Shown: positions 19,831 through 44,400, numbered from the stretch's first letter. The stretch: DNA of 64,000 bases from an uncultured Flavobacteriaceae bacterium (GCA_943789465.1 CALSUF010000002.1:631952-695951); one strand, 5' to 3'. Notes: generated by a model from the sequence alone, not told the origin. Made by a program: numbers and translations.

Positions 19831-20288
19831 TCTGTTACGATGATTATTGGTGGGTGTTAAAAGTGAAAACAGGACATGAACTAAAGGCTGTTTCTGATTT
19901 GGAAAGCTTTGGGGTCCAGTCTTACACTCCTATAATCGAGGTGGTTCGTAATTGGAGCGATCGTAAGAGGAAAATTCAAACACCACTTATGCCTCGTTAT
20001 GTATTTGTAAAATTGACCCCCAATGAAGAACGCATCGTATTTGGCTGCAAAAGTGTGCTGGGGTATATGCATATTCATGGATTGAGAGCAAAGGTTTGGC
20101 CTAAAGAAATTAAAAAGTTACAGCAGTATTGCAACAACATTCATTACGCTTCGCAAACTGATCGTGGAACACATATTAAAGCTCCCGTATTGGGCGTTGA
20201 TGCAGAAGTTATTAATGTCAAAAACGGAGTTTGTTATTTAGTTTCGGATTGTGGTCGTTATAAGATACAATTCAAACTGGCAAGCTAG
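19827..20288 (+). CDS. upxY: UpxY-family transcription antiterminator (NusG paralog) heading a polysaccharide locus
   Basis: NGN-domain motif YWWVLKVKTGHELKAVSDLESFGVQSYTPIIEVV...RKIQTPLMPRYVFVKL (compare NusG WY.l.t.sg.E.kv...L). It sits immediately upstream of flippase, glycosyltransferase, Wza and Wzc genes. Confidence 0.7.
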   Translation: MICYDDYWWVLKVKTGHELKAVSDLESFGVQSYTPIIEVVRNWSDRKRKIQTPLMPRYVFVKLTPNEERIVFGCKSVLGYMHIHGLRAKVWPKEIKKLQQYCNNIHYASQTDRGTHIKAPVLGVDAEVINVKNGVCYLVSDCGRYKIQFKLAS

Positions 20289-20309
20289 TAAATGAGCTTG
20301 TTATTTATT
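20281..20309 (+). terminator. Hairpin caagct-agtaaatg-agcttg over the upxY stop codon, followed by ttatttatt (candidate attenuator/terminator in the leader of the polysaccharide operon)
   Basis: Perfect 6-bp stem and a T-rich tail. It is followed by an unusually GC-rich stretch gagtgtcatgggacaccctgcggcggagccgtg (20321..20353) containing the hairpin gtgtc-atgg-gacac. Confidence 0.3.
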
Positions 20310-20387
20310 AAAACCCTTTAGAGTGTCATGGGACACCCTGCGGCGGAGCCGTGAAAATTTTAAATCAAATATGAGAACTATTCCAAA

Positions 20388-21497: not shown

Positions 21498-21558
21498 ATT
21501 ACTTTTAATATTTTTAACTGGGCTGCCTATCTTTGGCTCAAAATTACCCCTCTTTGTA

Positions 21559-22488: not shown

Positions 22489-23335
22489 TAAGTTAGAGTA
22501 TCACAGGTTTACATCTAAAATTATTAGTTGTGATGTTATTATTGAACATGAAAACCCATTTACCTATTTGAAATTGTTTAGTTTAAATTTTAAAAAATCT
22601 GAATTTTATTTTATTGGATTAAGATTACCTGATGTTTATTTAATTAAATTATTAAATAATAGATGCTCTAGATTAGTCGTACTTCAGCACGCTTTTAACG
22701 AGAATAATAATGTAAAATCATTTTCTTATTTTTTAAACAACGCTGTAAAATTTTTAATGTGGTTATTCTCAATTTTAATAACTAATCTTTTCTTATATAA
22801 AATAAAATATAATACTAAAACCAGCTGCTACTATTTCACGGATTATTATAGAAAAAGACTTAACACTATTGTTAAGAATGTTCTTTATCATAAATGTGGT
22901 GAACCTGACCCCTTAAATTTTGGCTCAAAAGAAAAAATTTTAATCGAAGATCAAATTATTAATTATTTCTATGTTGATGAACCACTAACTAGGACTCTAG
23001 GAATTTCGTTAAGTCGAGAAAAAAAATTAATATCAGATCTAATCACTGAATTTCATATTAATAAACTGTTTGTAAAGCTACATCCAAGATCATCAAAAGA
23101 AAAGTTTGCGGGACTACCAAATATAGTTTTAACAGATTCTATATACAGTAATTCTAAAACTCTGATTGGTTACAAAAGTAACCTCCTTCGACATCCTTTT
23201 AAATCTGAAAAATTTATCGAGTTGTCTAGAGCTAAATTAAGTTGGCATATAAAAGATTATAATTTTTCAAAATCAGGAAGTTATTCAAATGATGTAAAAA
23301 ATAATATCAAAAAACATGAAATCAATTCTGTATAG
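22457..23335 (+). CDS. Hypothetical polysaccharide-biosynthesis protein (unknown family)
   Basis: ORF track. Overlaps the neighbouring ORF by 32 nt, so the start is uncertain. Confidence 0.4.
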   Translation: MKVLKVAIVTNKLEYHRFTSKIISCDVIIEHENPFTYLKLFSLNFKKSEFYFIGLRLPDVYLIKLLNNRCSRLVVLQHAFNENNNVKSFSYFLNNAVKFLMWLFSILITNLFLYKIKYNTKTSCYYFTDYYRKRLNTIVKNVLYHKCGEPDPLNFGSKEKILIEDQIINYFYVDEPLTRTLGISLSREKKLISDLITEFHINKLFVKLHPRSSKEKFAGLPNIVLTDSIYSNSKTLIGYKSNLLRHPFKSEKFIELSRAKLSWHIKDYNFSKSGSYSNDVKNNIKKHEINSV

Positions 23336-24215
23336 TAATAAAAGTTACGGAGGTGCCGAAATTTATGTAAGAACATTAAGGAATGATTTTAACATCGATT
23401 TTTATTCAATCAAAAGTTATAATTTTTTTAAATTAATTCATGTTTGTTTTTTCGAAAAATCAATTGTTTTTCACGACGTAAGAGCCGCTTTATTTAAATT
23501 CACTAGACCCTTTAAGAACGATAAAATTGTTATTCACGGACCAGGAAAGAATCCAAGATTAATTAAAGTTATTGTAATATTATTATCCTTTACTAATTGT
23601 GAAATAATAATGGTAAGTAAAGATTTGTTTTCGAAATTCAATGGCTCTAAAAAAATCATCTTACTAGAAAACTCCTCTAACTTTGACAACATAAACTTAA
23701 AACTTAATAGTTTTGATTTCATTTATTTTGGCAGATTAGAACCTTCTAAAGGTTGTGATATATTGATTGATTTTTGGATAAATAAAAAAATCAATAAAAA
23801 TTTACACATCATTGGAGATGGATCACTTTATAATAAATACAAAAATAAAACGAACCTAAACGTAATTTTACACGGTCCTCTAGAACAAAGTGAAATCAAA
23901 AAAATAATAGAAAATAACTGTGCTTATTATATTTCTTTAAGTTTTCGAGAAGGACTTTCTCTGTCTTTATTGGAAGCTTTAAGTTCAGGGCTAATTCCAA
24001 TTGTAGCCAATATACCTTCACAAAAATTTATTTCGAAAAAATATGGCTTTAAACTTATTGAAGAGAATCTTTCTAATTTAGAAGATTTAATAAATAATAA
24101 TTTATCCCATGTAAAAATAAAAGCAAAATGTGAAGAAACTAAATTTTTATATAAAAATAATAATACTAATGATGAATTTAAAAAATATTGGAGAAAAGCG
24201 CTAATCCAACTGTAA
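23316..24215 (+). CDS. Glycosyltransferase family 4 (GT-B, retaining)
   Basis: C-terminal GT4 motif: SFREGLSLSLLEALSSGLIPIVANIP (E.fG...lEAma.G.PvI.....) and FIYFGRLEPSKGCDILIDFW. Confidence 0.7.
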   Translation: MKSILYSNKSYGGAEIYVRTLRNDFNIDFYSIKSYNFFKLIHVCFFEKSIVFHDVRAALFKFTRPFKNDKIVIHGPGKNPRLIKVIVILLSFTNCEIIMVSKDLFSKFNGSKKIILLENSSNFDNINLKLNSFDFIYFGRLEPSKGCDILIDFWINKKINKNLHIIGDGSLYNKYKNKTNLNVILHGPLEQSEIKKIIENNCAYYISLSFREGLSLSLLEALSSGLIPIVANIPSQKFISKKYGFKLIEENLSNLEDLINNNLSHVKIKAKCEETKFLYKNNNTNDEFKKYWRKALIQL

Positions 24216-26122: not shown

Positions 26123-28462
26123 ATGAAAACTTCCGAAAATTATCCTAGTCAAGAGAACAGTTCTGTTGATATCTTCACAGAAATTCGTTATTATGTCTTT
26201 TTTTGGCCCTGGTTTCTACTTTCTATCTTTCTTTTTTCGTTAGGGGCTTATCTTTACCTCCGCTATACAAATACCATTTATCAAACATCGGCAACCCTTC
26301 AGGTTAAAGACGCTTCTTCAGACCCACCATCCTTTTTGACGGAAGGTGCAGGAAATATGTTTAGCTTTGATAAAGTCAAAATTGATAATTACATTGCTCA
26401 GATTGGCTCAAAACCAAATTTAGCAAGAGTTTCAGATCTCTTGGACCTACAAACTCAAGTTTACTCCGTTGGTCATATCAGGAAAAGACTGATTTTTGGG
26501 ACTGATATTCCCTTCAAAATTATTTTTAAAACCGAACAAACTTACGAGTCCCTTAGCTTGGTTTTAGAGGCTTCTAAAGGCTATCTTTATGTTGATGAGG
26601 ATCCCATCCAATTTGATCTTTCACTGCCTTTAGAAACCGACGATTTTAAGATAATTGTCAACACTAATAAACCAAAATACATAAATAATTACCAAATGAA
26701 CAGATCAAACAGGTATATGGCTGTTGAGCGTCTATCTAAAAATATTGGCATTAGTGGAAGTAGTAAAACAGGGGATAATATGAATTTGAATATTCAAGGA
26801 TTCAACGCCAAACGCAATGAAGCTATTTTGAATACTCTTATTGAGGTGGCACACAAGCAACAAAAATTAGACAAGCAAGAAATTTACGCACTCTCCATAG
26901 GTTTTATCAACAACAGATTAGGCTCCATTAAAAATGAAATTGACTCCTTAACACTTCAAACGACAGGCTTCAAGTCTAATAATTTTATCTTTTCACCAAA
27001 AGCTCAAACTGAATCAGCGCTTACGAGTTTAAAGAACTTAGACCAGCAGCAGTTTAACTTAACTACTCAAAAGGCCCTTGCAAAATCTCTAAAAAAAAAT
27101 CTTGAAAACCAAGCGGACTTTAGTCTTTTGCCATCCAATATTGGTTTGCAAAGTACGAATGTTAATGAACTGGTATTGTCTTACAATGCGCTGGTGTTGG
27201 AACGTAAAAACTTATTGACTGGTGCTACCAAAAAAAACCTATTGGTAGTTCAAATTAGCAATCAACTGAGTGACTTGAAAACTAATATTTTTAGTAGTGT
27301 AGACAATTATCTTTCAAATATCGAGACTTCCTTAACGGAATATAAAGACTTTAAAAATAGAACCAACTCAGAGGTTTCAAAAATTCCAGAACTTGAATCA
27401 ACCTTAATCGGTTTTCAAAGAAGTTACCAAATTGCAGAAAAGTTGTATTTATTTTTATTGGAACGTCGTGAGGAAGCATCAATTAGTTACGAATCGACAC
27501 TACCAAACACCCGTGTAATTAATCATGCCCATACAGATTATGTTCCTGTAAAACCAAAAAAACAAATCATAGCAATGGCTGCTGTTTTATTGGGCTTAGT
27601 ATTTCCTTTTGGTATTTTATACCTACTAAAACTAACCGATACTAAAATTCATAATCGAAACGAACTCGGAAAACTTATTCCTAACATAGATATTATGGGC
27701 GAAGTACCTTTTATAGAAGATATACATTCAACCGACGACTCAAGAAGTATTTTAACAGAAACCTTTCGCATGATTCGATCAAATATAAGTTTCAAGTTAA
27801 ATAGTGATCAATCTTGTAAGGTTATTTTATCTACCTCGAATATTAAAGGAGAGGGAAAGACTTTTACAGCTTTCAATATTGCTGCGAGCTATGTAGCGAC
27901 TGGGAAAAAGGTTTTGCTTTTGGGAGCTGATTTACGAAACCCAAAGCTTCACATCCCAATGGTAATTAAACGCCCAATAATTAACAAAGGATTGAGTAAC
28001 TTGATAGCGAATTCATCAATTGAAATTAGTTCTGATTATTTAAATTCTTTTAACATATTTAATAACAACTTAGATGTACTTTTTAGCGGTCCAATTCCAC
28101 CTAACCCGTCAGAGCTTTTAGGATCTGTTAGATTTGTAAGTTTATTAGACAAATTAAAGGACTCCTATGATTATATCGTTATTGATTCAGCACCACTTAT
28201 GCTTGTCAGTGATAGCTTACCACTCTTGAAACTTGCAGACTTAGTAATCTATACATTAAGAGCAGATTATACCGAAATAAAGATAGTTTCTTATGTTAAT
28301 AGTTTAGTTAAAGATAAAAAAGTAAACAATATTGGTGTTGTATTTAATAGTGTCAAATCTATTACAAAATCCTATTATAAATATGGGTACGGATACCGCT
28401 ATAGCTATCAGAACAAATCCAACTATGGTTACGGCTATGGTTACGATCAAGAAAAGTCATAA
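26123..28462 (+). CDS. wzc: Polysaccharide co-polymerase / tyrosine autokinase (Wzc, BY-kinase)
   Basis: Two TM segments flanking a Wzz-like periplasmic domain. Walker A STSNIKGEGKTFTAFNIAAS. Walker B VIDSAPLMLVSDS. Tyr-rich C-terminal tail YYKYGYGYRYSYQNKSNYGYGYGYD. Confidence 0.85.
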   Translation: MKTSENYPSQENSSVDIFTEIRYYVFFWPWFLLSIFLFSLGAYLYLRYTNTIYQTSATLQVKDASSDPPSFLTEGAGNMFSFDKVKIDNYIAQIGSKPNLARVSDLLDLQTQVYSVGHIRKRLIFGTDIPFKIIFKTEQTYESLSLVLEASKGYLYVDEDPIQFDLSLPLETDDFKIIVNTNKPKYINNYQMNRSNRYMAVERLSKNIGISGSSKTGDNMNLNIQGFNAKRNEAILNTLIEVAHKQQKLDKQEIYALSIGFINNRLGSIKNEIDSLTLQTTGFKSNNFIFSPKAQTESALTSLKNLDQQQFNLTTQKALAKSLKKNLENQADFSLLPSNIGLQSTNVNELVLSYNALVLERKNLLTGATKKNLLVVQISNQLSDLKTNIFSSVDNYLSNIETSLTEYKDFKNRTNSEVSKIPELESTLIGFQRSYQIAEKLYLFLLERREEASISYESTLPNTRVINHAHTDYVPVKPKKQIIAMAAVLLGLVFPFGILYLLKLTDTKIHNRNELGKLIPNIDIMGEVPFIEDIHSTDDSRSILTETFRMIRSNISFKLNSDQSCKVILSTSNIKGEGKTFTAFNIAASYVATGKKVLLLGADLRNPKLHIPMVIKRPIINKGLSNLIANSSIEISSDYLNSFNIFNNNLDVLFSGPIPPNPSELLGSVRFVSLLDKLKDSYDYIVIDSAPLMLVSDSLPLLKLADLVIYTLRADYTEIKIVSYVNSLVKDKKVNNIGVVFNSVKSITKSYYKYGYGYRYSYQNKSNYGYGYGYDQEKS

Positions 28463-28728
28463 ATTTCTGTAGGTTCTGCTTGTTGTTCATAAACTTGTTC
28501 CTAAGAAATCAGTTCTTTTTTATTCAAATACATGTCCTTTAGTTTGTTTATGAGGTTATGTTCCGGACTAGACTTTAAATGCGCAAAAAGGGGATGATAT
28601 CTTTACTGTATTCATGTTAAAGCGTACTGAAAAGAACTTAAGCATCTTCACTTAAATTAGCATGTAATTTTATGACCCTAATATTACTAAATAGTACTGT
28701 TTAATTTTCATTTAAAAAAACTTTTTTT

Positions 28729-29835
28729 TTGTATTCAATATCTTTTATTCTCAAATATATTACGTTTGTCACCATTGCTGGGGTTGTGGCAATCGGCTAC
28801 TATAGGCGACTCATACTAACATTTAGAATTTTTGGGAAACCAAAAAAAAGAGATTTTCACAAAAATCCTTTGCCAAACTCTGTAGGAATTGTTTTTGCAA
28901 TTTTATTTTTAATTGGATCTTTACCTCTAATCCCATACGTTAAAAACATACAAACTTTTTTAGCTCTATTTATTTGCATCTTTTTTCTGTCATTAATTGG
29001 CTTTTGGGATGATTTAAAAATCATGAACACAAGGAAAAAATTAGTTTATCAAATAATACTGATCATTATTACTGTAATCGCAAATGATCTAGTTTTAAAG
29101 AATCTTCATGGTTTCTTAGGGATTAACGAAGTGCCTAGCCTATTAGGGTTGCTGTTATCCGTGTTTATTGGTGTATTTATGGTAAATGCATTTAACTTGA
29201 TTGATGGCATAGATGGATTGGCAGGTTTTATTAGCATCATTGCCTTCACAAGTTTTGCTATCATCTTTTGGGTACTCGACTACAAATTCTATTTTGGGTT
29301 GTGTTTACTGCTCATCGGTATCATCTTAGCGTATCTGCCCTTTAACTTTAGTAGGAAAAGAAAAGTTTTTATGGGAGATTCCGGTTCGCTTTTTATTGGA
29401 TTCATCATTTTTATAATGACCATGATCGTGGTCACAAACATGGAGCCTATTGATACGAGCTTAATCCATAGGTCAATATTACCCATTGCGCCAATGACCA
29501 TTTTTCTCATTCCAATGGTAGATTCACTTAGCATATATACCTACAGACTATCTTTGGGAGTGAGTCCTTTTGCTCCAGACAGACTTCACATTCATCATTT
29601 AGCATTACGGATAACCAATTCACATTTAATGTCTTCAATAGGAATTAGTTCAATTAATTTATTCCTAATAGCTTTGTTTTCATACTTAGCATTCCAAATG
29701 CACCATACTTGCTTTATTGGACTATTTTTTGGGGTATTCTTTGGTTTAGTGTTTTTTACCATCTATCTCAGAATACGTCTTAAGCGGATTGCGCGTAAAA
29801 AATATCATGAGAGATATCCTTATATTCAAGGCTAA
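28729..29835 (+). CDS. Polyprenyl-phosphate sugar-1-phosphate transferase (MraY/WecA family, GT4 'GPT')
   Basis: MVNAFNLIDGIDGLAGFISII (NAxNxxDGxDGLA motif); 10-11 TM helices. The track start is a TTG adjacent to a T9 run, so the true start is uncertain. Confidence 0.75.
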   Translation: MYSISFILKYITFVTIAGVVAIGYYRRLILTFRIFGKPKKRDFHKNPLPNSVGIVFAILFLIGSLPLIPYVKNIQTFLALFICIFFLSLIGFWDDLKIMNTRKKLVYQIILIIITVIANDLVLKNLHGFLGINEVPSLLGLLLSVFIGVFMVNAFNLIDGIDGLAGFISIIAFTSFAIIFWVLDYKFYFGLCLLLIGIILAYLPFNFSRKRKVFMGDSGSLFIGFIIFIMTMIVVTNMEPIDTSLIHRSILPIAPMTIFLIPMVDSLSIYTYRLSLGVSPFAPDRLHIHHLALRITNSHLMSSIGISSINLFLIALFSYLAFQMHHTCFIGLFFGVFFGLVFFTIYLRIRLKRIARKKYHERYPYIQG

Positions 29836-29905: not shown

Positions 29906-29928
29906 TTTTTATTCCCAAGAATAATTTA

Positions 29929-30552
29929 TTATCCTTGGGAATAATTCAATATTGATATTATTACAAATAATAAAACATAAACAGCTATGACAATAAGGCC
30001 CCATTTTAGATTAGAATTTTTATTTAGATATGTGACCATAATATTGACAGTACTTATACTATTTTCTATACCAAGCTTATTTTTAGCCATATTAGATAAA
30101 TGTAACCAAGCTAAAGATAATTGTAGTTTGTTTTTATTTTCATCATCTTCATCCCAAAAACTCACCTTATTGAGCCTGTAGTTATTTTCTGCAAATTCCT
30201 TAATTTCTATCAAAAGTTTTGGGTTTGTAGGCAAAACAAAATTTGCAACTGCTTTGGCTTGTAATTTATAGACTTGTTGCCTTACATCTTCTTCATGGTC
30301 TTCATCCCATTCCTCAAAATTAGTAGTACCAAATATTTTACCTATTAACCCTTCCTTAGTGTTAGTGTTTTTATTATCAATGCGTGCTTGGATTTCTTTT
30401 CTTACTGTAATTTCAATCTCCCTAAGTTCATCCTCAAAATTGTTTATGGGGTGATTAATATCATTACTTTGAAATAAAGTAATTTCTCGTCCACACCATT
30501 CACAGATGACATCTTGTGCCTTTACTGGGTTTTTACAATGGTTACATTTCAT
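29929..30552 (-). CDS. Zinc-ribbon protein with C-terminal TM anchor (last gene of the SPFH/channel operon)
   Basis: N-terminal CxxC...CxxC (MKCNHCKNPVKAQDVICEWCG). C-terminal TM WGLIVIAVYVLLFVIISIL. Overlaps the upstream channel gene by 11 nt. Confidence 0.6.
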   Translation of the reverse strand: MKCNHCKNPVKAQDVICEWCGREITLFQSNDINHPINNFEDELREIEITVRKEIQARIDNKNTNTKEGLIGKIFGTTNFEEWDEDHEEDVRQQVYKLQAKAVANFVLPTNPKLLIEIKEFAENNYRLNKVSFWDEDDENKNKLQLSLAWLHLSNMAKNKLGIENSISTVNIMVTYLNKNSNLKWGLIVIAVYVLLFVIISILNYSQG

Positions 30553-31345
30553 TCTTAGATCGTTTTAATTCATCAATCTGAATTCTTAATTGATTTAATT
30601 CTTCGTCTTGTTTTGCGGATTTGTCTTTACTATATTCAGAATCATAGTTTTTAACAACTGCCCCAATGATAATATTTAACAGAAAAAATGCAGATAGAAT
30701 TAGCCATGAAACAAAATAGATATTTACAATCCAACTTGATACATCTGAACTTAACAAATCGTATCTAAGATCTGTCCAGTCTTCCCCTGTAGTAACTCTA
30801 AAAAGGGAAAATAGAGCCTCAGAGATATTACCAAAAGGATCAAATGTGTCATTAAATTTATTTGAGACATGAGTTTTACCTTTAAATAATATTACTCCTA
30901 CTAAGGCATAGAAATACATCAAAATAATAAGTAAAGAAATAATTCTAAGAAGAGCAGCAAAAGAATTTTTAACTACTCTTAATATAGCAAGAGTTTCTGG
31001 AAAAACTTTTATGAGTCTTATAATTCTAACCACTCTTACAATTCTAAATATTGTGAGTAAGTCAGAATTTAAAAATAAACTTTCTGGAATTAAAGAAACA
31101 ATTATTAACGTTAAATCAATAATATTCCAAATATTTTTAAAAAAAGAAATAACACTATTTCTAGCTAACCACCTAGCTGAAATTTCAACGATAAAGAGAA
31201 TGATACATGCATCTTGAGTCCATGAAATTAAATCTGATTGATAAGATTGCTCAATTCCAATGAGTATACAATTAACAAGAATAATAAATGCCACTGCAAT
31301 ATTAAAAGCTTGAGAAGCTACTGTTTTTTTAAAAAACAAATTCAT
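30542..31345 (-). CDS. Single-domain (6-TM) voltage-gated cation channel, BacNav/NaChBac-like, with a Ca-channel-type selectivity filter
   Basis: S4 voltage sensor with R/K at every third position (FRIVRVVRIIRLIKV). Pore-helix/filter LFRVTTGEDWTD aligns to NavAb TLESWSM with acidic residues at the positions mutated in the Ca-selective CavAb (TLDDWSD), and resembles eukaryotic Cav domain II (LTGEDWN). C-terminal coiled coil DEELNQLRIQIDELKRSK. 267 aa. Confidence 0.8.
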   Translation of the reverse strand: MNLFFKKTVASQAFNIAVAFIILVNCILIGIEQSYQSDLISWTQDACIILFIVEISARWLARNSVISFFKNIWNIIDLTLIIVSLIPESLFLNSDLLTIFRIVRVVRIIRLIKVFPETLAILRVVKNSFAALLRIISLLIILMYFYALVGVILFKGKTHVSNKFNDTFDPFGNISEALFSLFRVTTGEDWTDLRYDLLSSDVSSWIVNIYFVSWLILSAFFLLNIIIGAVVKNYDSEYSKDKSAKQDEELNQLRIQIDELKRSKNEM

Positions 31346-31346
31346 T

Positions 31347-32654
31347 TTATTCAGTTAGTTTTTTACCACAATTTGAGCAAAACTTTGTACCCGCAGTGTA
31401 TTCATTGCCACATTCACAGATATTTGGAAGAACATATTCACAGGCATGACATATTTTTGCATTTGCATCTAAATCAGTATCACATTTTGGACAAGGGTTA
31501 TAACCATCGCCACAATTTGGACAAAATTTATATTTAGGAGAAAAACCTGTAGCACATTTATCGCAGTTTACTGTTTTTTCAGTAATTTGTTTTGGTAAGG
31601 TTGTAGAATTGGCCTGTGCTGTACCACAGTTTTTACAAAAAGGGCTTGTAGATTGCAGAGCAGTGTTGCACTTACTACAAGGCTTTGAAGGATTGGCCAA
31701 ATTATCAGTATTCATCTGGTTTTGAACCATCCCTCCTACTTGATTTGCCAAAGGCATGGCCATTCCAAGTCCTACAACGGTACCTAAAATACCAGAGCCT
31801 CCAGAGCCGTCGCCACCTTCAGAGCCACCAATATTGGTAGCAGCTGCTTCAGTTGTATCAAAAGTTCGTTCAACTTTATATACATTTAACTGCTCGGCTC
31901 TACGTTTGAGTCGTAGTTTTTCCTCCATATCTTCAGACATAATACGGTGGTAATCCTCTACAATTTTTTTTACGCGCTCATCTTCGTCAACTACAGATAT
32001 TCCTTCAACACTAAAAAAACTAATTTCTAAACCATATTTAGACATAGCAAATTTTACAGCTGGCTGAATACTATTGCTAAGCTCTTTGACCATATATTCA
32101 AGTTCTAAAGGACCTAAGTCTAAATCTTTAGATAGTTTCCAAATTGCGTTTTTGGTTGATTCGGTAATAATTCCTCTAAATAATTTTTGTAATTCTAATT
32201 GATTGAATAGGCTAGATACCCCTACAATTTCAGTTAAAAATTTTCTAGAGTCTACTATCTTTACTGAATAACTTCCTCTACAGGTAATGGGAATTGGAAC
32301 TTTAAAATTTGGTTCAACGATATTAAAAGGCATCAAGCCCCACTTAGCATCCTGTGAAAGCGCCTTGTTTACGTAAAAAACCTCGGCAGTGAAAGGAGTG
32401 TCCCCTCCAAAAGCAAGTCCGATTACATCAGCTAGAAAAGGGATGTTATAGCTTGTAAGTGTGTGGGTTCCAGCTCCAAAAACATCTAATAACTTACCGC
32501 CTTTAAACATGAAGGCATCTTGGCTTTCATTGACCACCAATTGGGTGCCAATTCTTAGTTGATTTTCACGTTTTTGATTTCCATTTTTTGGAGACCATTT
32601 CCAAACAAGCTCATCATTTGGTCCTTCATATTTTAATACATCAATAATAGCCAT
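31347..32654 (-). CDS. SPFH/band-7 domain protein with C-terminal multi zinc-ribbon region (COG4260 / B. subtilis YdjI-like, 'virion core protein' family)
   Basis: N-terminus MAIIDVLKYEGPNDELVWKWSP... is typical of YdjI-like SPFH proteins. Gly-rich linker. At least 5 CxxC pairs in the last 110 aa (CSKCNT...CKNCG, CDKC...CPNCG, CPKC...CHAC, CECG...CSNCG). 1-nt gap to the channel gene (TAAAATG). Confidence 0.7.
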   Translation of the reverse strand: MAIIDVLKYEGPNDELVWKWSPKNGNQKRENQLRIGTQLVVNESQDAFMFKGGKLLDVFGAGTHTLTSYNIPFLADVIGLAFGGDTPFTAEVFYVNKALSQDAKWGLMPFNIVEPNFKVPIPITCRGSYSVKIVDSRKFLTEIVGVSSLFNQLELQKLFRGIITESTKNAIWKLSKDLDLGPLELEYMVKELSNSIQPAVKFAMSKYGLEISFFSVEGISVVDEDERVKKIVEDYHRIMSEDMEEKLRLKRRAEQLNVYKVERTFDTTEAAATNIGGSEGGDGSGGSGILGTVVGLGMAMPLANQVGGMVQNQMNTDNLANPSKPCSKCNTALQSTSPFCKNCGTAQANSTTLPKQITEKTVNCDKCATGFSPKYKFCPNCGDGYNPCPKCDTDLDANAKICHACEYVLPNICECGNEYTAGTKFCSNCGKKLTE

Positions 32655-32658
32655 ACTG

Positions 32659-34584
32659 TTACGATTTTGGTATTGGGATTTTCATACTCCCAGATTTTGT
32701 TATTATGTGTATCTCTTTCAAGTTATCCATACTAACTCTTGTACGAAATCTATAAACCAATTTTTGTGCATCAATTTGTTTAGATTTGGGTTGGATCGGA
32801 TTTATAGAATTTATGTCATTTATAGTAACAAAAGGTTCCAAATTAATGAGCTCTTTTGGTACAGAAAACGTGATATCATTATACACATACCCTTTGTCAA
32901 CAGAGATTTCTGATTTTTCTAACGCAGAAATCAATTCGTTTGGTAAATCTGTTTTTAATTTACTATACTCCTCAGATCGATCTTTTGCTGTTTGAAATTT
33001 AAATCCCTCCTCATCGATCCACGAAACAATATCGTCTGTGATGATGACACCTCTTAGTTTTACAATATCTTCAGGAACTATTTTTTTGTTTCCTAACCAT
33101 TCATAATCTATCTCAAGTGGTTCTTTATAGTCCTTTTCTGAGTACGGTGGAAGACTATTTAATGCATCTGGCACTTTAAAAACTTGATAATTATCTTTGT
33201 AACTGTCAGTAAAATGAATACATAAGAACAAACGAACGTTTTCTATAGTCCGGTTGGAATTGTTAGTCATTTTAACACGTAAAGAATTCTTAGGGTCAAT
33301 TATAGACCCTTCTGAAACCTCAATATCAACAAAAGGACGCTCCACAAACATCTCAGAAAAAACAGTTGGCAAATATTTATTGCAAAAATTTAAATCACCA
33401 GGCAAATAATCTTGAACCACTTGGTTGCCACGTCTAAAAAAGTGACGTTTAATTTCTTCGATTGCTTTTGTGTTGTTCCCAAGATTTCTATGCATGATAG
33501 CTTTTTGAAAGTTTGGACTGAAATTACCAAAACCTTCCATGGTACTCATGTAGGTTTTAACGATGAATTCAGACTCAACAGATCTAAAAATAGAACCTCT
33601 GATTTTAAAAATATTCATTAAATCCAGAAGTGCTTCACTTTGTTTTGGATACAGAATAGAGGCTTCATCAAATAATGTGAATGCGTTTTCTATTTCACCT
33701 TTTTGATATTCTAAAATACCCTTCAAAACAAAAGCAGGTGCTGTAGATGAAGGGAATTTTTCAAAATAAGATGCTAAAATGGTTTCTATTTCTTCAAGTT
33801 TAGTGACTTTTTGTTCGTCATTAGAAATGGTATTATTATTCAATGAAAGCAGGGCAAAACCTTTTAATAATATAGACTCACGATCATTGGGAGATAATTC
33901 TAAGGCAGTATCAGCAAACTCAATCACTTTTTGGTAATTAGAATTGTAAAGTGATATGTAGGCCTGATCTCTTTGAGCACAGAGCTTGTCCCATTGGGTC
34001 ATATATTTAAGAAATATAGGGCTTGAAAACTTAACATATTCCAAATAAGTTTCCTTGACTTTTTTTATCTTTTTTAAAACTTCAATTTCTCTTTCATAAC
34101 GGTCTCCAGCTATACTCATCGCATCGGCACCTGCTTTTGCAAGGTTTAAACTACCTCTAATTATATCTCCTTCATAAATTTGAACCCCTGAATTTACTGC
34201 AACAGCAGTAACACTTCCAAATTCTGAAAATGCAGTCCATACAGATTCACCAACTTCCTTTTCTGCCTCTGCATCATAAAGATTTTCTAACACTGGTAAT
34301 AATTTCTGATAACAACTAATAACATCAGGCGCTACACCAGTCAAATCTTGTTTGTAAAGATATTCTGTATATTCTTGAACGTCTTTTACATTTTTTATCG
34401 CTTCATCTAAAGTGAATATAACCTTAATTGTAGCTTCAAGGTTTAAAGAGTTCTTATTGGTTGTTTTAGAGTTTTCTAATTGTTCATCAAGCTGAGTAAA
34501 TTGTGAATTAGGGGATTTAGTCTCTGAACAGGCTGTAAACAATATGACTAAAAAAAGAATATTAAATTTTTTCATGATTTTCAT
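32659..34584 (-). CDS. Lipoprotein with TPR-like helical repeats (first gene of the SPFH/channel operon)
   Basis: Lipobox LVILFTAC. Helical repeat-rich sequence. 4-nt gap to the downstream SPFH gene. Confidence 0.65.
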   Translation of the reverse strand: MKIMKKFNILFLVILFTACSETKSPNSQFTQLDEQLENSKTTNKNSLNLEATIKVIFTLDEAIKNVKDVQEYTEYLYKQDLTGVAPDVISCYQKLLPVLENLYDAEAEKEVGESVWTAFSEFGSVTAVAVNSGVQIYEGDIIRGSLNLAKAGADAMSIAGDRYEREIEVLKKIKKVKETYLEYVKFSSPIFLKYMTQWDKLCAQRDQAYISLYNSNYQKVIEFADTALELSPNDRESILLKGFALLSLNNNTISNDEQKVTKLEEIETILASYFEKFPSSTAPAFVLKGILEYQKGEIENAFTLFDEASILYPKQSEALLDLMNIFKIRGSIFRSVESEFIVKTYMSTMEGFGNFSPNFQKAIMHRNLGNNTKAIEEIKRHFFRRGNQVVQDYLPGDLNFCNKYLPTVFSEMFVERPFVDIEVSEGSIIDPKNSLRVKMTNNSNRTIENVRLFLCIHFTDSYKDNYQVFKVPDALNSLPPYSEKDYKEPLEIDYEWLGNKKIVPEDIVKLRGVIITDDIVSWIDEEGFKFQTAKDRSEEYSKLKTDLPNELISALEKSEISVDKGYVYNDITFSVPKELINLEPFVTINDINSINPIQPKSKQIDAQKLVYRFRTRVSMDNLKEIHIITKSGSMKIPIPKS

Positions 34585-34625
34585 ATTTATTATTCTATAA
34601 ATTTAAAGCATAATTCAATAAATAT

Positions 34626-35903
34626 ATGTACATATTTTGTACATTTAATTTTATGATTAAAACTTTAAAAACAATTACTCAAAAAAAATTAGGATTTAAA
34701 ATTGAAGACTATAACAGTTCTAGAAGGTTAAGTGAAATTATTTATACAGAAACTGGAATCGAAATCAGTTATAATACGCTGAGACGATTTTTTGGAATTG
34801 TAAAACCTGTTAAACCTAGTAATTACACTCTAAATGCTTTGGCGGTGTTTAATGGTTTTAAGAGTTATACCGATTTTGTGATGAACTTCCACTTGAAAAA
34901 TAGATGGAAGGAAGAGTTTCAAATAGTTTCTCTAATGGATGATCGAAAAAAAAAAATATTAGAATACATCCAAACTAATTTACACTCAAAAAGGGAATTC
35001 GTTCTAAAATTAACGCAAATAATTCGAGAGTTAATGTTGATTAAGGACTATAATTTTTTATTGCAGATATTTAGTTTGGATCAAATGAATTTTAATTATT
35101 TCAATTTTGATGATGTTGCATACATTGGTAACTGCACAGGTCCACTTCTAAAAACATTTGATTTAAAATCTACTGGGACTCATAGGCTTATACTCAATAA
35201 TAACTTTTTAGACATAGTAATAACCATCTTTGTAGACTATAAAAACTTAAATAATTATTATGGAGAATACCTAAGATATATCAACGCCAACTGTGAAAAA
35301 GAAAATATTAGCCAGTTTTGTAAAGGGGTCTTAAATTTAAATATGTACCTCAATAACGAAAATAAAAATCAAATGTTTAAACTAAAATTAAGTTCGAATT
35401 TTCACCCCATACTTAAAAGTAGGGTAATTGCTCAGGAGTTATTTTTTGAGTCTAACAACTTAATTGAAATTCTGAACAACTACGATAAACAGTCACAGGA
35501 GAAGGCCAGAATTAACATAGATTATTATTTTGAAATCATTACTACAGCAATTGTTACAAAAAAATTTGAGGTTATGGCATGGATTTTTAAAAAGTTTGAA
35601 TTCAAAACAAAATATGATAAGTTTTATAAATTTGAACATTATGAACACTTTGGGTTGATGGCTATGGTTTTGTTTAAATACCGTCAAGATGATAAGAACT
35701 TAAACTTATGGATTAAATCCATTTCATTTGATAATTTCTCTAGACCGTATGAAACTTTTATGCTACAATTCGTTTACATTCTCAAATACCACAACTCAAA
35801 AGCAAATAAGGTGTTTTATAAAACTAAGTATATGGAATCAGCCAAATATCTCTACCCAAAGTTTTTTACCGAAGACTACTTGATTAATTATTTTAACGTA
35901 TGA
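34626..35903 (+). CDS. Hypothetical protein with N-terminal AraC-like HTH fragment
   Basis: LSEIIYTETGIEISYNTLRRFFGI resembles one AraC HTH repeat. The rest is unknown. Confidence 0.45.
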   Translation: MYIFCTFNFMIKTLKTITQKKLGFKIEDYNSSRRLSEIIYTETGIEISYNTLRRFFGIVKPVKPSNYTLNALAVFNGFKSYTDFVMNFHLKNRWKEEFQIVSLMDDRKKKILEYIQTNLHSKREFVLKLTQIIRELMLIKDYNFLLQIFSLDQMNFNYFNFDDVAYIGNCTGPLLKTFDLKSTGTHRLILNNNFLDIVITIFVDYKNLNNYYGEYLRYINANCEKENISQFCKGVLNLNMYLNNENKNQMFKLKLSSNFHPILKSRVIAQELFFESNNLIEILNNYDKQSQEKARINIDYYFEIITTAIVTKKFEVMAWIFKKFEFKTKYDKFYKFEHYEHFGLMAMVLFKYRQDDKNLNLWIKSISFDNFSRPYETFMLQFVYILKYHNSKANKVFYKTKYMESAKYLYPKFFTEDYLINYFNV

Positions 35904-36727
35904 TAACTGCTGTTCTTGGAGTATTGTTTTTCGGATTCGCAGATGCACTATGGAGACCTAGTGTTTTGCATCATGGACTTCACAAAGTCTTGTTGCACAG
36001 AACTGTGCTTACCACTTTGATATTGGGTTTATATTTACTTTTAGATATTCAACACTTTAAATTTAATATACCAATGATTGGTGTTGGGATATTAAGTGGA
36101 GTTATTGCGGGATTTGGGCTCTATTTCCTAGCAAAAGCTTTCAGTTTGGAAACAACAACAAATGTGCTTTTTTTAAATATATTTACGCTTTTAATTGCCC
36201 AATTATTCTCTTTTATTTTATTTAAAGAAACAATCCAGTGGAAATACTACCCTATCGAAATAGGTCTTTCTATATTGACAGTATTATGTTTTAACGGTTT
36301 TGACTTTAAACTAAGAAAAGGTCTAATTTATGGGCTTTTAGCCTCTATTTGCTTTGGGATTGCATATCCATTAGCAGGTGTTCCAATCAAAGAAATTGGA
36401 TTTAAAACAACTATATTTATTCAAGAGATAACTGTCTTAACTATATTTTTTTGTTTTGGATATTTCATAAAAAAAACAAAAATTGATTTAAAAATATATT
36501 TAGATATTAAGATTTTAGCATTAAGTGTTTTGTCTGCAATTGCAGTAATTTTATTTTTTTACAGCTACACGGTCATAGAAATATATAAAGTAAATTTAAT
36601 TTCAAACTTTCATCCAGTTGGCGGCATGATTGTTTCAATCATATTATTTGATGAACGTCTAACAAAATATCAAATTTTAGGGGTGGTGAGTTCAATTATT
36701 GTTTGCTTATCAATTTTCGTCAATTAG
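35900..36727 (+). CDS. EamA/DMT-superfamily-like 10-TM membrane transporter (tentative)
   Basis: 10 hydrophobic helices in 275 aa with an internal duplication pattern. ATGA overlap with the upstream gene. Confidence 0.5.
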   Translation: MITAVLGVLFFGFADALWRPSVLHHGLHKVLLHRTVLTTLILGLYLLLDIQHFKFNIPMIGVGILSGVIAGFGLYFLAKAFSLETTTNVLFLNIFTLLIAQLFSFILFKETIQWKYYPIEIGLSILTVLCFNGFDFKLRKGLIYGLLASICFGIAYPLAGVPIKEIGFKTTIFIQEITVLTIFFCFGYFIKKTKIDLKIYLDIKILALSVLSAIAVILFFYSYTVIEIYKVNLISNFHPVGGMIVSIILFDERLTKYQILGVVSSIIVCLSIFVN

Positions 36728-36843: not shown

Positions 36844-38775
36844 TTAGTTTTCAATAGTTACTAGTGGACTGACTGTTATATCTAGCGTATAGTGACCTCC
36901 AGAATAATTTACATTTGCAAAATGACCATCGGCATCAGCAGTCCAAATTGAACCATCAGAAATACCGGCAGGACCTGCTATTCTATAAATTGCTTTTTGA
37001 TCACCATTAGAATGCTCAGAAGGAGTTGTGAAATCATAGATTTTCACATTATTTTCTGTGTATAGGATGTATTGAGTATCAGCAATTCTATTATAATAAC
37101 CTCCACCAAATTGCGCCCATCCATATATAGTCATTTCTTTGAATTCAGAGATATTGTAAGGAGTATTAAAAAGAATCGTTCCAGTATCACCACCGTTGTA
37201 AGTATAATTATTTGTATCTGTTTTATTATCTCCAATCATGTGAATTATATCTCTTGTACCGCCAAAATTAGGGGATTGATGATTAACATTAGTTGTTGAT
37301 GCTGTTGCATAAGCTGGTCTTGCAGCGTCAAATTCTCCGCTATCACTATCCACAATAAAATGCATTGCTCTGATAGTTTGGTGTCCTCCAATTGATTTTT
37401 TAATTTCAATTTTTTTGATATTTGCAAATTCACTCGGAAGAATAGCATTAGTCATATCGGCGCCGCTTAAATCAGCCCCACTTAAATCAACACCACTTAA
37501 ATCGACACCACTCAAGTCTTGATTTATTAAGTCTGCGTTAGATAGATCAACTCTTGGTCCAACAATATAACCATTAACAATTGAGTATCCTGGCGGTAAT
37601 GTAGGATTTCCTGAAACATTTCCAGAACTGACACCAGTAAAAGTTGCACCAGAAAAATCAATTCCTGTTAAATCAATTCCTGATAAATCAGCAGAATATA
37701 GGTCAGAATTTGTAAAATTACTACTCCCATTTTGTATCATTAATCTTATTAAAGATCTAGCAGGAGCAGCTGAACTTGAAATACTAGACTCTCCTTGAAT
37801 TCCTTGAGGCCCAGTTTCTCCAGAAGGACCTGTTAAGTCAGAGGTTGTGAAAGTTGTTCCATCATCAAAAGACAATGTAAATGTTCCATTATTATTATCT
37901 GTTGCGGAAACAATTCCATTCCCAGCAGAACCAGCATTTCCAGGTGGTCCTACTAGACCTTGTGCACCATCTGCACCATCTGCACCTGGAGCACCTGCAG
38001 CACCTATACTTCCTGTTGGACCTATTGGACCTTGAGCACCATCAACTCCGTCAACACCTGCTGGGCCTGGAGCACCTTGGTTTCCTTGAGGACCTGCTGG
38101 ACCGATTGGACCTATTGGACCTTGAGCGCCATCTGCACCATCTGCACCTGCTGGACCTTGATTTCCTTGAGCTCCTGCAGCACCTATACTTCCCGTTGGA
38201 CCTATTGGACCCTGAGTACCAGTCTCGCCTTGTATTCCTTGGTCGCCTTGTACACCTTGAGCACCATCAACTCCGTCTTGACCATCAACACCTGCTGGGC
38301 CTGGAGCACCTTGATTTCCTTGAGGACCTGCTGGACCGATTGGACCTATTGGACCCGGAACTGTTGAGTCCGCGCCAACTGGACCTTGAACACCTTGATT
38401 TCCTGCTGGGCCTTGAACACCTGCTGGACCCTGAGCACCATCTTCGCCATCTGCACCTGCTAATCCTTGAGGACCTGCTGGACCTTGTGGACCTGTTAGA
38501 CCTTGAGGACCAACTACGCCATCAATTTTTGCCCAAGCTGTTCCATTATAAAAATAAAATCCTGATATTTCATCTGTTTGATAAATCATTAAACCTGTAG
38601 CAGGTGCTGAAATATCATCACGCTGCGTCTCTGTGAGACGTGGAATTAAAATACCTCCTGTGGTGGATTCAATTTCTAATGCCGAAGAAGCATTTGGGGT
38701 ATTGGTATTAATACCAACCTGAGCGTAGCTGAGTACTGTAAATAGCATGACTATCAAAAAGTTGATTTTTTTCAT
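36844..38775 (-). CDS. Secreted collagen-like (G-X-Y) protein with C-terminal pentapeptide-repeat and globular domains; paralog family N-domain
   Basis: Signal peptide MKKINFLIVMLFTVLSYAQ. Conserved 80-aa N-domain VGINTNTPNASSALEIESTTGGILIPRLTETQRD...GLMIYQTDEISGFYFYNGTAWAKIDG. About 70 uninterrupted GXY triplets. Pentapeptide repeats ADLSGIDLTGIDFSGATFTG and DLSGVDLSGVDLSGADLSGADM. Confidence 0.8.
   Translation of the reverse strand: MKKINFLIVMLFTVLSYAQVGINTNTPNASSALEIESTTGGILIPRLTETQRDDISAPATGLMIYQTDEISGFYFYNGTAWAKIDGVVGPQGLTGPQGPAGPQGLAGADGEDGAQGPAGVQGPAGNQGVQGPVGADSTVPGPIGPIGPAGPQGNQGAPGPAGVDGQDGVDGAQGVQGDQGIQGETGTQGPIGPTGSIGAAGAQGNQGPAGADGADGAQGPIGPIGPAGPQGNQGAPGPAGVDGVDGAQGPIGPTGSIGAAGAPGADGADGAQGLVGPPGNAGSAGNGIVSATDNNNGTFTLSFDDGTTFTTSDLTGPSGETGPQGIQGESSISSSAAPARSLIRLMIQNGSSNFTNSDLYSADLSGIDLTGIDFSGATFTGVSSGNVSGNPTLPPGYSIVNGYIVGPRVDLSNADLINQDLSGVDLSGVDLSGADLSGADMTNAILPSEFANIKKIEIKKSIGGHQTIRAMHFIVDSDSGEFDAARPAYATASTTNVNHQSPNFGGTRDIIHMIGDNKTDTNNYTYNGGDTGTILFNTPYNISEFKEMTIYGWAQFGGGYYNRIADTQYILYTENNVKIYDFTTPSEHSNGDQKAIYRIAGPAGISDGSIWTADADGHFANVNYSGGHYTLDITVSPLVTIEN
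38172..38410. repeat. About 240-bp collagen-coding tract, near-identical to 39497..39736 and 48950..49190 (an inter-paralog homogenised segment)
   Basis: DNA identity is visible by eye (...cctatacttcccgttggacctattggaccctgagtaccagtctcgccttgtattccttggtcgccttgtacaccttgagcaccatcaactccgtcttgaccatcaacacctgctgggcctggagcaccttgatttccttgaggacctgctggaccgattggacc...). Antisense shadow ORFs 37881..38600, 39428..39754 and 48902..49600 share identical peptides. Confidence 0.75.
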
Positions 38776-41434: not shown

Positions 41435-44400
41435 TTAATTCTTTATAATTCTTTGTGTAGTGAGTTTAGCACCATCAGAAAGTTGTAGGATGTAGACTCC
41501 TTTTTCTAGTTGGCTAATATCTATACTATTTGTAATAGACTTATTCATTAGTTGCTTTCCAAGTATATCATATACAACTACTTTTAATTGAGTGTAATTA
41601 CCGTCTATGTATACTATATCTGAAGTAGGATTTGGATAAACAGAAAGCCCTAATTCAAATGCATGATCTCCCACACTTAATGCACTACAAGCTGCTTCAT
41701 CTTCAACAAAAGTAGCTGCAGGATCAATAGTTGTCCAATTTGTAGAACTATAGTCAGCATTGTCCACAAAAATACAGCTCAAATTAGGATTGTTTGTAGC
41801 AATAAAATAAGTAATGCTTGCATTATTTTCGTTTCTAATATCTAATGTTTCTAATTGATTATTATCAACACTCAAAATTTCCAAATTAGTGTTACTACTA
41901 AGATCTAAAGTTGTTAAATTATTTGAATTACAAGTCAAAATCTCTAAGGCAGGATTACTACTTACAATTAGTTCTGTTAATTGGTTATCATAACTAGCCA
42001 AAATCTCTAAGGCAGTATTACTACTCACAATTAGCTCTGTTAATTCATTAGAATTACAAATCAACGTAATCAAGTTTGCATTACTACTGACATCTAAACT
42101 TCTTAATCCATTGTTATTACATTCCAAATACTCCAAAGCAGTATTTTGACTCACATCTAAACTTGTTAATTGATTATTTTCGCATCTCAAATAGTCCAAA
42201 GCCGTAAATCCTTCTATTCCTGTCAAATCTGAAATATATAAACCTCCTAAATTTATACTTGTTATGCCATTAATATTTGCAGTTAATACTTGACCATCAA
42301 TTTCTCCCGAGTCTAGATTATAATCTATTAGGGCTTGTTCAAAATTGGCATCTGGAATGGAGGTGATTGAAGGACAAGTACCCCAAACTGGTGTATTACT
42401 CTCAGCCAATGGTGAATCAACACTAAAATTACTTGGCTCTGAAGTAATATCTGTAACACACCAATTTGATATATCTTGATTGAAAGCAGATGCTTGATAA
42501 AACATAGCTTCCATATTAGTAACACTACTCACATCCCATTCACTTATATCTTGATTGAAAGAAAATGCTCCAGCAAACATTTCTAACATTTCAGTCACAT
42601 TACTCACACCCCAAGCATTCAATGGTTGATTGAAAGATGATGCCCCAAAAAACATAAAAGACATATTAATAACGCTGCTCACATCCCATTCACTTATATC
42701 TTGATTGAAAGAAAATGCTCCAGCAAACATACTAACCATATTAGTCACACTACTTGTATCCCATTCACTTATATCTTGATTGAAAGATGATGCTTGATAA
42801 AACATACCACTCATATCAGTCACACTACTTGTATTCCAATCATTTAGTGGTTGATTGAAAACAGTTGCTCTAGCAAACATACCACTCATATCAGTCACAC
42901 TACTTGTATTCCAATCATTTAGTGGTTGATTGAAAGATGATGCATTATAAAACATATAACTCATATTAGTCACACTACTCACATCCCAAGAACTGATATC
43001 TTGATTGAAAGCAGTTGCTGATTCAAACAAATAATTCATATTAGTCACATTACCTGTATCCCAAGCACTTATATCTCCATTAAAAGTGTTTTTATCTTCA
43101 AATGCATCACTCATATCCGTTACTTGGCTCACGTCCCAATCTGGCATTAAACCGTATTCACTATCTGAACATAGACCATCTTCTGGATTTGTACTTAAAC
43201 AAGTGTTTATAGCAGTATAAAAATTATCATCTGTAATTGGGGTTAGATTGCTTGGACAAGTACCCCAAACTGGTGTATTACTCTCAGCCAATGGTGAATC
43301 AATACTAAAATTACTTGGCTCTGAAGTAATATTTGAAACACACCAATTGGATATATCTTGATTGAAAGCTGATGCTTCTAAAAACATAGAATCCATATTA
43401 GTAACACTACTCACATCCCAAGAACTTATATCTTGATTGAAAGCAGATGCAGAATAAAACATTTCATACATATTAATCACATTAGCCACATCCCAAGAAC
43501 CTATATCTTGATTGAATTCTGTTGCAGAATCAAACATACTATCCATTCTACTAACACTACTTACATCCCAAGAACTTATGTCTTGATTGAAAGATGATGC
43601 TTCTTCAAACATATAACTCATATCAGTAACACTACTTGTATTCCAATCATTTAGTGGTTGATTGAAATCGGATGCAAGAGCAAACATACCAACCATATTA
43701 GTCACACTACTTGTAACCCAATCATTCAATGGTTGATTGAAAGATGATGCATAAAAAAACATATAACTCATTTCAGTAACACTACTTGTATTCCAAGAAC
43801 TTATGTCTTGATTGAATTCTGTTGCAGAATAAAACATATAACTCATATCAGTAACACTACTTGTATTCCAATCATTCAATGGTTGATTGAAAGATGATGC
43901 ATAAAAAAACATATAACTCATTTCAGTAACACTACTTGTATTCCAAGAACTTATGTCTTGATTGAATTCTGTTGCAGAATAAAACATATAACTCATATCA
44001 GTAACACTACTCACATCCCAAGCACCAATAGGTTGATTGAAAGCCGATGCCCCTGCAAACATATAACTCATATTAGTCACACTACTCACATTCCAAGAAC
44101 TTATATCTTGATTTAATTCTGTTGCAGAATCAAACATACCATACATAGTTGTAACACTAATTGTATTCCAAGAACTTATATCTTGATTGAAAGATGATGC
44201 TTGATAAAACATATCTAACATATCAATCACATTACTCACATTCCAATTAGAAATATCTTCATTAAAATTTCGTTTTCCATCAAATAAAGAACTCATATCT
44301 GTAATTAAAGAAACATCCCAAGTATTCATTGCTCCGTAAGTTCCTGAGCCTTGTTCGGATGGTACTGGACTATCTGCAGTAATCGTCCCATCAATCCAAC

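Follow-up and report, generated by a model that had tools for sequence, protein, structure and literature searches.

Within a window of 64,000 nucleotides from an uncultured Flavobacteriaceae bacterium (GCA_943789465.1 CALSUF010000002.1:631952-695951; the window is the whole stretch that was analysed, and positions are counted from its first letter), four adjacent open reading frames (ORFs) on the minus strand place a gene for an SPFH (stomatin/flotillin-like) protein directly beside a gene for a predicted voltage-gated cation channel. The first gene codes for a predicted lipoprotein of 641 amino acids (34584-32659), the second for an SPFH protein of 435 amino acids with a Band_7_1 domain (32654-31347), the third for the channel, of 267 amino acids (31345-30542), and the fourth for a zinc-ribbon protein of 207 amino acids, which we call the partner (30552-29929). 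The junctions between them are a 4-nt gap, a 1-nt gap and an 11-nt overlap, in which the start of the partner gene lies over the channel stop codon (ATGAAATGTAA). A first-pass annotation of this DNA had described four coupled minus-strand genes with these identities; the coupling is confirmed by the junctions, and the identities by Pfam matches, a lipobox and a hydrophobic helix.

The four genes and their products

The 435-aa protein matches Band_7_1 (PF13421) at residues 28-227 with 132 bits against a gathering cut-off of 24 (E = 3e-38), and several zinc-ribbon families in Pfam as well (DZR, E = 1.7e-15). Band_7_1 is followed by a helix of about 50 residues (226-276), a low-complexity linker rich in Gly and Met (approximately 276-322) and four C-terminal zinc ribbons, whose cysteines lie between residues 326 and 429; the cysteines of the protein are invariant across 20 homologs (alignment A1). 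The first-pass annotation had counted at least five ribbons, a number that has to be lowered: there are eight CxxC/CxC pairs and therefore four ribbons, and a fifth is found in some homologs of 455-465 aa. Kyte-Doolittle hydropathy, at most 1.38 over 19 residues, predicts no transmembrane helix in the protein. An AlphaFold2 (AF2) model made with 20 homologs has a mean predicted local distance difference test score (pLDDT) of 62, and its best matches among solved structures are stomatin, HflK/C, flotillin and prohibitin, with human stomatin at the top (E = 1e-6). One structural match, PDB 9zd2, is stomatin bound to aquaporin 1. We also noted a marine contig (L097:2095-3567) in which the SPFH gene has a premature stop that costs the protein its last zinc ribbon and puts 135 nt between the SPFH and channel genes.

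The 267-aa protein has a single Ion_trans domain (residues 12-240, E = 5e-43) and six hydrophobic segments. Its best single-domain relative of solved structure is NaChBac (E about 1e-26), and there are per-domain matches to Cav and Nav channels. The S4 segment has the form RxxRxxRxxRxxK, in which FRIVRVVRIIRLIK holds R101, R104, R107, R110 and K113; the four arginines are invariant, and the lysine nearly so, among 24 homologs. The selectivity filter is FRVTTGEDWTD, with T186, E188, D189, W190, T191 and D192 invariant across the subfamily, and the C-terminal tail is charged and helical. Judged by these sequence features the protein is a voltage-gated cation channel of the BacNaV/AnclNav type, the likeness to AnclNav coming from the filter alone. 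The motif LFRVTTGEDWTDLRYDL is common to the whole channel subfamily, including members that are not linked to an SPFH gene, so the pore has no features special to the SPFH-linked genes.

The 641-aa protein begins with a signal peptide and a lipobox (LFTAC followed by S, read from the sequence), which make it a predicted lipoprotein. It has a helical region resembling tetratricopeptide repeats (TPR) at about residues 200-330, and its C-terminal half is beta-rich. It had been called a TPR lipoprotein; TPR_2, TPR_1 and TPR_14 all score under their Pfam gathering thresholds (the best has 24.4 bits against a cut-off of 27), and we therefore call the protein TPR-like. The family is uncharacterised and comprises about 220 clusters at 50% identity in a library of 1.84 billion proteins. 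The 207-aa partner has an N-terminal CxxC...CxxC zinc ribbon with a sub-threshold Pfam score, a middle domain that is probably helical and contains a conserved motif (F-x-L-P-x-N-P-x-L-L-x-E), and one C-terminal hydrophobic helix at residues 179-207, a tail anchor. Its single-sequence AF2 model has a pLDDT of 43 and was left out of the fold search.

Upstream of the lipoprotein gene the only non-coding DNA is an AT-rich spacer of 41 nt (34585-34625), shared with a divergent gene (34626-35903), and a promoter is therefore presumed to lie in this spacer or just inside the neighbouring gene. A sigma-70 scan gave promoter counts at the level of shuffled sequence, with a scan model that is unsuited to Bacteroidota promoters. 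The intrinsic-terminator scan, which is uninformative for Bacteroidota, likewise gave counts at shuffle level, and it placed zero terminator-like sites on the minus strand within the four genes. At the far end, a perfect 16-bp hairpin on the minus strand (29909-29944) spans the stop codon of the partner gene, in the space between this gene and a convergent glycosyltransferase-4 gene that ends at 29835. The hairpin has a folding energy of -19.3 kcal/mol (z = -4.97; of 200 shuffled sequences none folds so stably) and is likely the end of the transcript, though no U-tract follows it. An Rfam scan of the whole window returned zero RNA families.

History of the SPFH gene pair and of the channel

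From the 20 multi-ribbon SPFH homologs of alignment A1 we collected 80 loci in species-representative genomes and searched them with phmmer and a channel hidden Markov model (HMM). A channel gene adjoins the SPFH gene in only five of these loci (L009, L010, L011, L012 and L013), all from one marine Flavobacteriaceae clade that we call group 1, and the HMM found no channels in the 80 loci outside this group. One of the five, L009, is a Flavobacteriaceae metagenome-assembled genome (MAG) contig, JAQXCA010000021, whose locus is identical to the window. A sixth locus, L065, has an SPFH protein of 88% identity and the order lipoprotein-SPFH-partner, with 17 nt at the position of the channel. Further away, L014 (about 50% identity) has lipoprotein, SPFH and partner genes and no channel. 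In L014, as in every group-1 locus, a lipoprotein homolog immediately precedes the SPFH gene.

Beyond these loci, homologs of the partner follow Band_7_1 genes in many Bacteroidota (alignment A3); for example, in Flavobacterium, Chitinophaga and Sediminibacterium the gene next after that of a 359-aa Band_7_1 protein codes for a homolog of the 207-aa protein. More distant multi-ribbon SPFH genes (47% identity) are followed by genes for TerB-like zinc-ribbon, TM2-domain, four-helix membrane and small double-ribbon proteins, and the Firmicutes relatives by genes for membrane proteins with zinc ribbons. The old and widespread unit in Bacteroidota is thus an SPFH gene with a zinc-ribbon partner, and neither PspA nor a channel (L014, L038, L015-L021, L034, L001 and L004). 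The SPFH and partner genes were thus neighbours before the channel gene came in between them. The first-pass annotation had proposed that the ion channel takes the place of PspA, as compared with the module of the homologous SPFH protein YdjI in Bacillus subtilis; in view of the relatives with neither gene we reject such a replacement as unsupported, and the channel is an add-on. Domains of PspA and TPM are absent from the four proteins and from those of the flanking genes, the rest of the 64-kb window not having been scanned for PspA.

The partners belong to an unnamed zinc-ribbon family found beside Band_7_1 genes across Bacteroidota, in which both a TerB-like N-terminus and a transmembrane helix are optional (for example, window 29929-30552, L034:8087-8650, L001:7394-8134 and L140:432-1550). 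The C-terminal transmembrane helix occurs only in the clade that has, or had, the channel.

In group 1 the channel has a simple history. A tree made from the concatenated lipoprotein, SPFH and partner proteins has the form ((window, L013), L065) and (L010, (L011, L012)), with L014 outside. Since the channel is present in both halves of this tree, it was gained once and later lost in L065. Divergence between the two sub-clades is also similar for the channel (73-74% identity) and for the SPFH protein (74-76%). We conclude that the channel gene was inserted once, in the ancestor of this marine clade, and has descended vertically since. Using a channel alignment (A2) to scan metagenomes, we found 25 further group-1 loci, which have the order SPFH-channel-partner wherever the contig reaches. 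Close relatives of the locus come from marine metagenomes, including those of TARA, and altogether the same order is seen in about 30 related loci with channel identities of 73-100%. SPFH, channel and partner genes are all present in 26 group-1 loci, and the junctions (a 4-nt gap, a 0-1-nt gap and an 11-nt overlap that reads ATG/GTG-AAN-TGT-AA) are kept in 22 of them; the four exceptions are three loci with a damaged channel (L013, L112 and L114) and the contig with the premature SPFH stop (L097).

The ratio of nonsynonymous to synonymous substitution rates (dN/dS) is 0.03-0.12 for the channel, 0.05-0.19 for the SPFH gene, 0.07-0.12 for the lipoprotein gene and 0.20-0.32 for the partner gene. 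The channel is therefore under strong purifying selection, with a dN/dS no higher than that of the SPFH gene. In a bootstrapped neighbour-joining tree of the channels, group 1 has 100% support, its stand-alone sister set 89%, and the clade that joins them 66%.

A second association of channel and SPFH genes was found in the gut Bacteroidales Prevotella and Candidatus Limisoma (group 2). In eight loci (L140-142, L169, L154/156/158 and L161) the channel is distant in sequence, only 35-37% identical to that of the window, and has a same-strand Band_7_1 gene no more than 1-1.5 kb away. The SPFH proteins of group 2 are about 450 aa long and about 28% identical to the window protein, with a GYF_2 end replacing the zinc ribbons. 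The clusters are tight, with gaps of 2-30 nt, and also contain genes for a small GYF_2 protein, small multi-helix membrane proteins, lipoproteins and a TerB-like zinc-ribbon protein with a transmembrane segment, sometimes with inserted genes for peptidoglycan hydrolases (Peptidase_M15_4 and Amidase_2). Five more members of group 2 were checked, of which two (L175 and L177, the latter from the Prevotella MAG GCA_051869235.1) are linked to an SPFH gene and three (L174, L176, which has a short flank, and L178) are not. In the group-2 operons (L140:327-6641, L156:791-8801, L161, L169, L175 and L177:3001-7828) the SPFH gene may precede or follow the channel, at a distance of 0.6-5 kb, and at least four arrangements occur, so the neighbourhood has survived rearrangement. 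The channels form a clade of their own, with a long turret insertion and 100% bootstrap support, separate from group 1. Their closest named relative outside the group, that of Hugenholtzia roseola, stands alone and does not add a third linked lineage.

The partners in the two groups are homologous. An hhalign comparison of the group-1 partner with the TerB-like zinc-ribbon partners of group-2 and other SPFH operons gave a probability of 98.2% (E = 4.6e-14), and both sets share the ribbon, the helical domain and the motif F-P-(I/L)-P-N-x-x-(E/D)-D-L-L-E. Therefore the same scaffold pair has been joined by the same channel family at least twice. The first-pass annotation had named chance juxtaposition, to be recognised by a lack of synteny in other Bacteroidota, as an outcome that would overturn its proposal; the neighbourhood recurs in about 30 loci and again in group 2, and conservation on this scale together with an independent second association rules chance juxtaposition out.

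Chance could still have acted at the start, if the channel had landed in a permissive, well-expressed operon and had been carried along without any functional relation to it. A single insertion in group 1 followed by losses and knock-outs would fit this history, as would the stand-alone state of the sister lineages of the channel. It does not account for the second, independent association of both families with a homologous zinc-ribbon partner, nor for strong purifying selection and a conserved overlap geometry. If Band_7_1 genes occur about once per genome, as we roughly infer, chance would put one within 4 kb of about 0.3% of genes; we see one that close in 8 of the 55 channel loci outside the group-1 clade (in four to five distinct arrangements). 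We regard neutral hitch-hiking as very improbable.

Possible roles of the channel beside the SPFH protein

The reading that we favour, tentatively and with a little less than even confidence, is that the channel works as a membrane component in association with the SPFH scaffold, and depends on it for its location, stability or gating. The four genes would then be one operon for a sub-membrane scaffold system of the YdjI/SamI type. In B. subtilis, the soluble protein YdjI/SamI is recruited to the membrane by YdjG/H (PMC8581546; bioRxiv 10.64898/2026.02.06.704340), and SPFH proteins in general assemble into rings or cages, attached to the membrane, inside which membrane proteins are enclosed (PMC11260169, PMC12624060). 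In the window, the soluble four-ribbon Band_7_1 protein would be the scaffold, and the partner would tether it to the inner face of the membrane, which it could do because the tail-anchor helix is present in this clade. The TPR-like lipoprotein would sit on the outer side. Stop/start coupling on a shared transcript would fix the amount of channel relative to the other products, and the SPFH oligomer, once tethered, would hold the channel tetramer in place and tune where it sits, how stable it is or how it gates. Depolarisation-driven entry of Na+ or Ca2+ would thereby be tied to the role of the scaffold in envelope or ionic stress. That the genes are co-transcribed and that their products associate is inferred in this scheme, as are the direction of control and the ion that passes. 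A stricter form, in which SPFH oligomer and tether make up a dedicated auxiliary complex that encloses or binds the channel tetramer and sets its gating, clustering or turnover, is unlikely, if far from negligible; it would be the first accessory-subunit system for a BacNaV, and a bacterial counterpart of animal stomatin-channel coupling that arose at least twice.

Several observations weigh against a dependence of the channel on the scaffold. The coupling of the two is read here from the gene neighbourhood. The SPFH model is of modest quality (pLDDT 62), and proteins of the Band_7_1/YdjI type are not known to form cages. The link is restricted: the closest SPFH relatives (47-59% identity) have no channel, and the nearest channels outside the marine clade (46-51% identity) stand alone. 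These stand-alone relatives, also in Bacteroidota, have upstream spacers of their own of about 290 nt and unrelated neighbours. Even in the sampled gut Bacteroidales an SPFH gene is near the channel in only about half of the loci, and not in L174, L178 or L160. The scaffold can also do without the channel, which has been cleanly lost in L065 (8309-8325). In L114 (3474-4261) a deletion of 13 nt has taken out exactly the codons of the selectivity filter, and in L013 (8309-9100) and L112 (4001-4772) the C-terminal tail of the channel is frameshifted; the L013 copy contains an additional in-frame TAG. Some of the inactivated copies could be assembly errors, but the deletion in L065 and the presence of two lesions in L013 speak for at least part of them being real. 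Such damaged copies contrast with the strong purifying selection seen elsewhere in the clade.

Alternatively, the channel and the SPFH module may simply be needed under the same stress in seawater or the gut (for example alkaline, high-Na+ or membrane-depolarising) and share a promoter without any contact between their products. The pspA-ydjGHI operon of B. subtilis responds to alkaline shock (PMC8581546), and BacNaVs of alkaliphilic Bacillus supply Na+ for Na+/H+ antiport at high pH (PMC4225499). Relatives of the channel work as stand-alone genes, and the scaffold works without a channel in most lineages, and in L065 too. Yet for co-regulation alone the channel gene would not need to lie between those of scaffold and tether, nor would 0-1-nt and overlapping junctions have to persist through a long divergence, and co-regulation leaves unexplained why the same two families have stayed together through the rearrangements of the second lineage. 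On balance we find shared regulation without contact possible, but on the unlikely side.

The dependence could also run in the other direction. If the channel were the sensor, membrane damage or a loss of potential would open it, and the influx of Na+ or Ca2+ would trigger assembly of, or signalling by, the zinc-ribbon SPFH protein, so that the channel would stand in for the stress-sensing step of Psp-like systems. Its voltage sensor is intact, with four arginines and a lysine in S4, and SamGHI has been described as a membrane stress sensor complex; moreover, the operon and its recurrence speak for a sensor as much as for the scaffold-dependent channel that we prefer. The acidic filter is of a Ca2+-binding type: NavPp is Na+-selective and blocked by Ca2+, while the related CavMr is Ca2+-selective (PMC7041947), so the selectivity of the window channel cannot be inferred from these relatives. 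Against a sensor, Pfam finds no recognisable Ca2+- or Na+-binding domain in the SPFH or partner proteins. The scaffold pair is also older and far more widespread than its link to the channel, and must therefore sense stress without a channel in most species. The direction of control is not readable from the sequence, and we consider a sensor role quite unlikely.

The last explanation that we weighed is a conflict or defence module, with the SPFH and zinc-ribbon proteins as guards of the membrane and the channel as an effector that depolarises it, as happens in abortive infection. Knock-out alleles do recur despite purifying selection, and the content of the group-2 clusters is variable, including TerB-like and peptidoglycan-hydrolase genes. 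However, the four proteins, the divergent neighbour and the group-2 SPFH and channel proteins have no PADLOC match at E <= 0.01, the channel looks like a normal gated BacNaV and not like a toxin, and its inheritance is vertical and congruent with that of neighbouring genes. The surroundings consist of envelope and exopolysaccharide (EPS) genes, with no mobile-element context. We give a defence role hardly any credence. The TerB-like protein of group 2 has one weak PADLOC match (E = 2.8e-4).

Just downstream of the operon, on the plus strand (26123-29835), are genes for a Wzc-like tyrosine kinase, with GNVR and P-loop regions and a C-terminal tail rich in Tyr and Gly, and for the convergent glycosyltransferase-4, which is of the WecA/MraY type. 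Upstream of these two genes is a stretch of low GC content (14000-24000, 26-28% GC), and together they look like a capsule or exopolysaccharide locus. On the other side, the divergent pair 34626-36727 (plus strand) codes for a 425-aa protein without a Pfam match and, after an overlap of 4 nt, an EamA-family transporter. This pair is kept beside the operon in L009, L010, L012 and L013, and in L065 two ORFs that we liken to the pair by size alone (433 and 275 aa) flank the operon at its opposite end. Further along, on the minus strand, the gene at 36844-38775 codes for a 643-aa secreted protein in which pentapeptide repeats (Pfam Pentapeptide, E = 1e-18) come after long collagen-like G-x-y repeats (Pfam Collagen, E = 2e-31), and this gene explains a local rise in GC content at 38-40 kb; a very long ORF of 1682 aa (41435-46483) lies in a region of strongly negative GC skew.

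Comparison with known systems

The analogy that the first-pass annotation drew with YdjI and YdjG of B. subtilis is right in its main lines: in both cases a gene for a zinc-ribbon membrane protein adjoins one for a soluble SPFH protein that has C-terminal ribbon(s) after a low-complexity linker (PMC8581546, PMC11237479). YdjI is a soluble SPFH protein in an alkaline-shock-induced membrane-stress system (PMC8581546; PMC11237479). The window operon and the B. subtilis PspA-YdjGHI (SamGHI) system have in common an anchor-less Band_7_1 protein with a linker and one or more C-terminal zinc ribbons, and an adjoining gene for a zinc-ribbon protein with a transmembrane segment, a possible membrane recruiter. 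In contrast to SamGHI, the window operon has no PspA and no TPM-domain YdjH, its SPFH protein has four zinc ribbons where YdjI has one, a TPR-like lipoprotein and a voltage-gated channel are added, and the gene order differs. The membrane partners may differ too, that of the window having one ribbon and a domain predicted with low confidence to be all-helical, and YdjG being described with two ribbons and an NTF2-like domain (PMC11237479).

In the literature on Band_7_1/COG4260 and on operons that combine SPFH proteins with voltage-gated channels we found no prior description of this arrangement, in a search that was not exhaustive. Two large comparative-genomics papers on Psp systems describe band-7 contexts, and the SPFH-channel context is not among them (PMC11237479 is one of the two). 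A convergent neighbourhood of SPFH and BacNaV genes would come as a surprise to specialists.

As a channel, the window protein shares with the AnclNav proteins NavPp and CavMr one six-helix domain of about 270 aa, an Arg-rich S4, a T-x-E-x-W-x-D filter and a C-terminal helical tail. The second position of its filter is glycine, a residue that domains II and IV of animal Cav channels also have there. In NavPp and in the ancestral BacNaV as inferred, the position is leucine, the one difference between their TLEDWTD and TGEDWTD; the filter of CavMr is TLEGWVD (PMC7041947). Through this operon a YdjI-type scaffold gains a concrete candidate client, and a BacNaV concrete candidate regulators. The voltage-gated Na+/Ca2+ channels of bacteria serve as important structural models and have a poorly known physiology, and SPFH proteins are universal membrane scaffolds whose bacterial clients are mostly unknown. 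We know of no partner proteins, operon-encoded ones included, described for BacNaV channels. If channel and scaffold genes are only co-regulated, their neighbourhood points to the conditions (ionic, alkaline or membrane stress) in which such channels matter in marine and gut Bacteroidota, which are abundant.

Other SPFH systems share with the window operon the pairing of a scaffold with a specific membrane partner. In HflK/C-FtsH, stomatin/QmcA-NfeD and FloA/FloT, the SPFH protein is encoded with, or acts on, such a partner, and for HflK/C and flotillin an oligomeric cage architecture is known. These proteins have membrane anchors of their own and other partners (a protease or NfeD), with no voltage-gated channel and no zinc-ribbon tether. 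Among eukaryotes, proteins of the stomatin family regulate channels in several pairs: MEC-2 with MEC-4, stomatin with ASIC, STOML3 with Piezo, and podocin with TRPC6. The pairing of an SPFH scaffold with a membrane channel is common to these systems and to the window, where we see it as a neighbourhood of genes; the eukaryotic stomatins are hairpin-anchored whereas the Band_7_1 protein is soluble, and the window channel, a voltage-gated tetramer, is of another family. Bacteria may thus couple SPFH scaffolds to ion channels as animals do, and if the coupling is physical, a relation so far known from animals is also bacterial, whether by shared descent or by convergence. The parts of the operon all belong to known families, and its scaffold pair is of a known kind; what is new is the recurrent inclusion of a voltage-gated channel.

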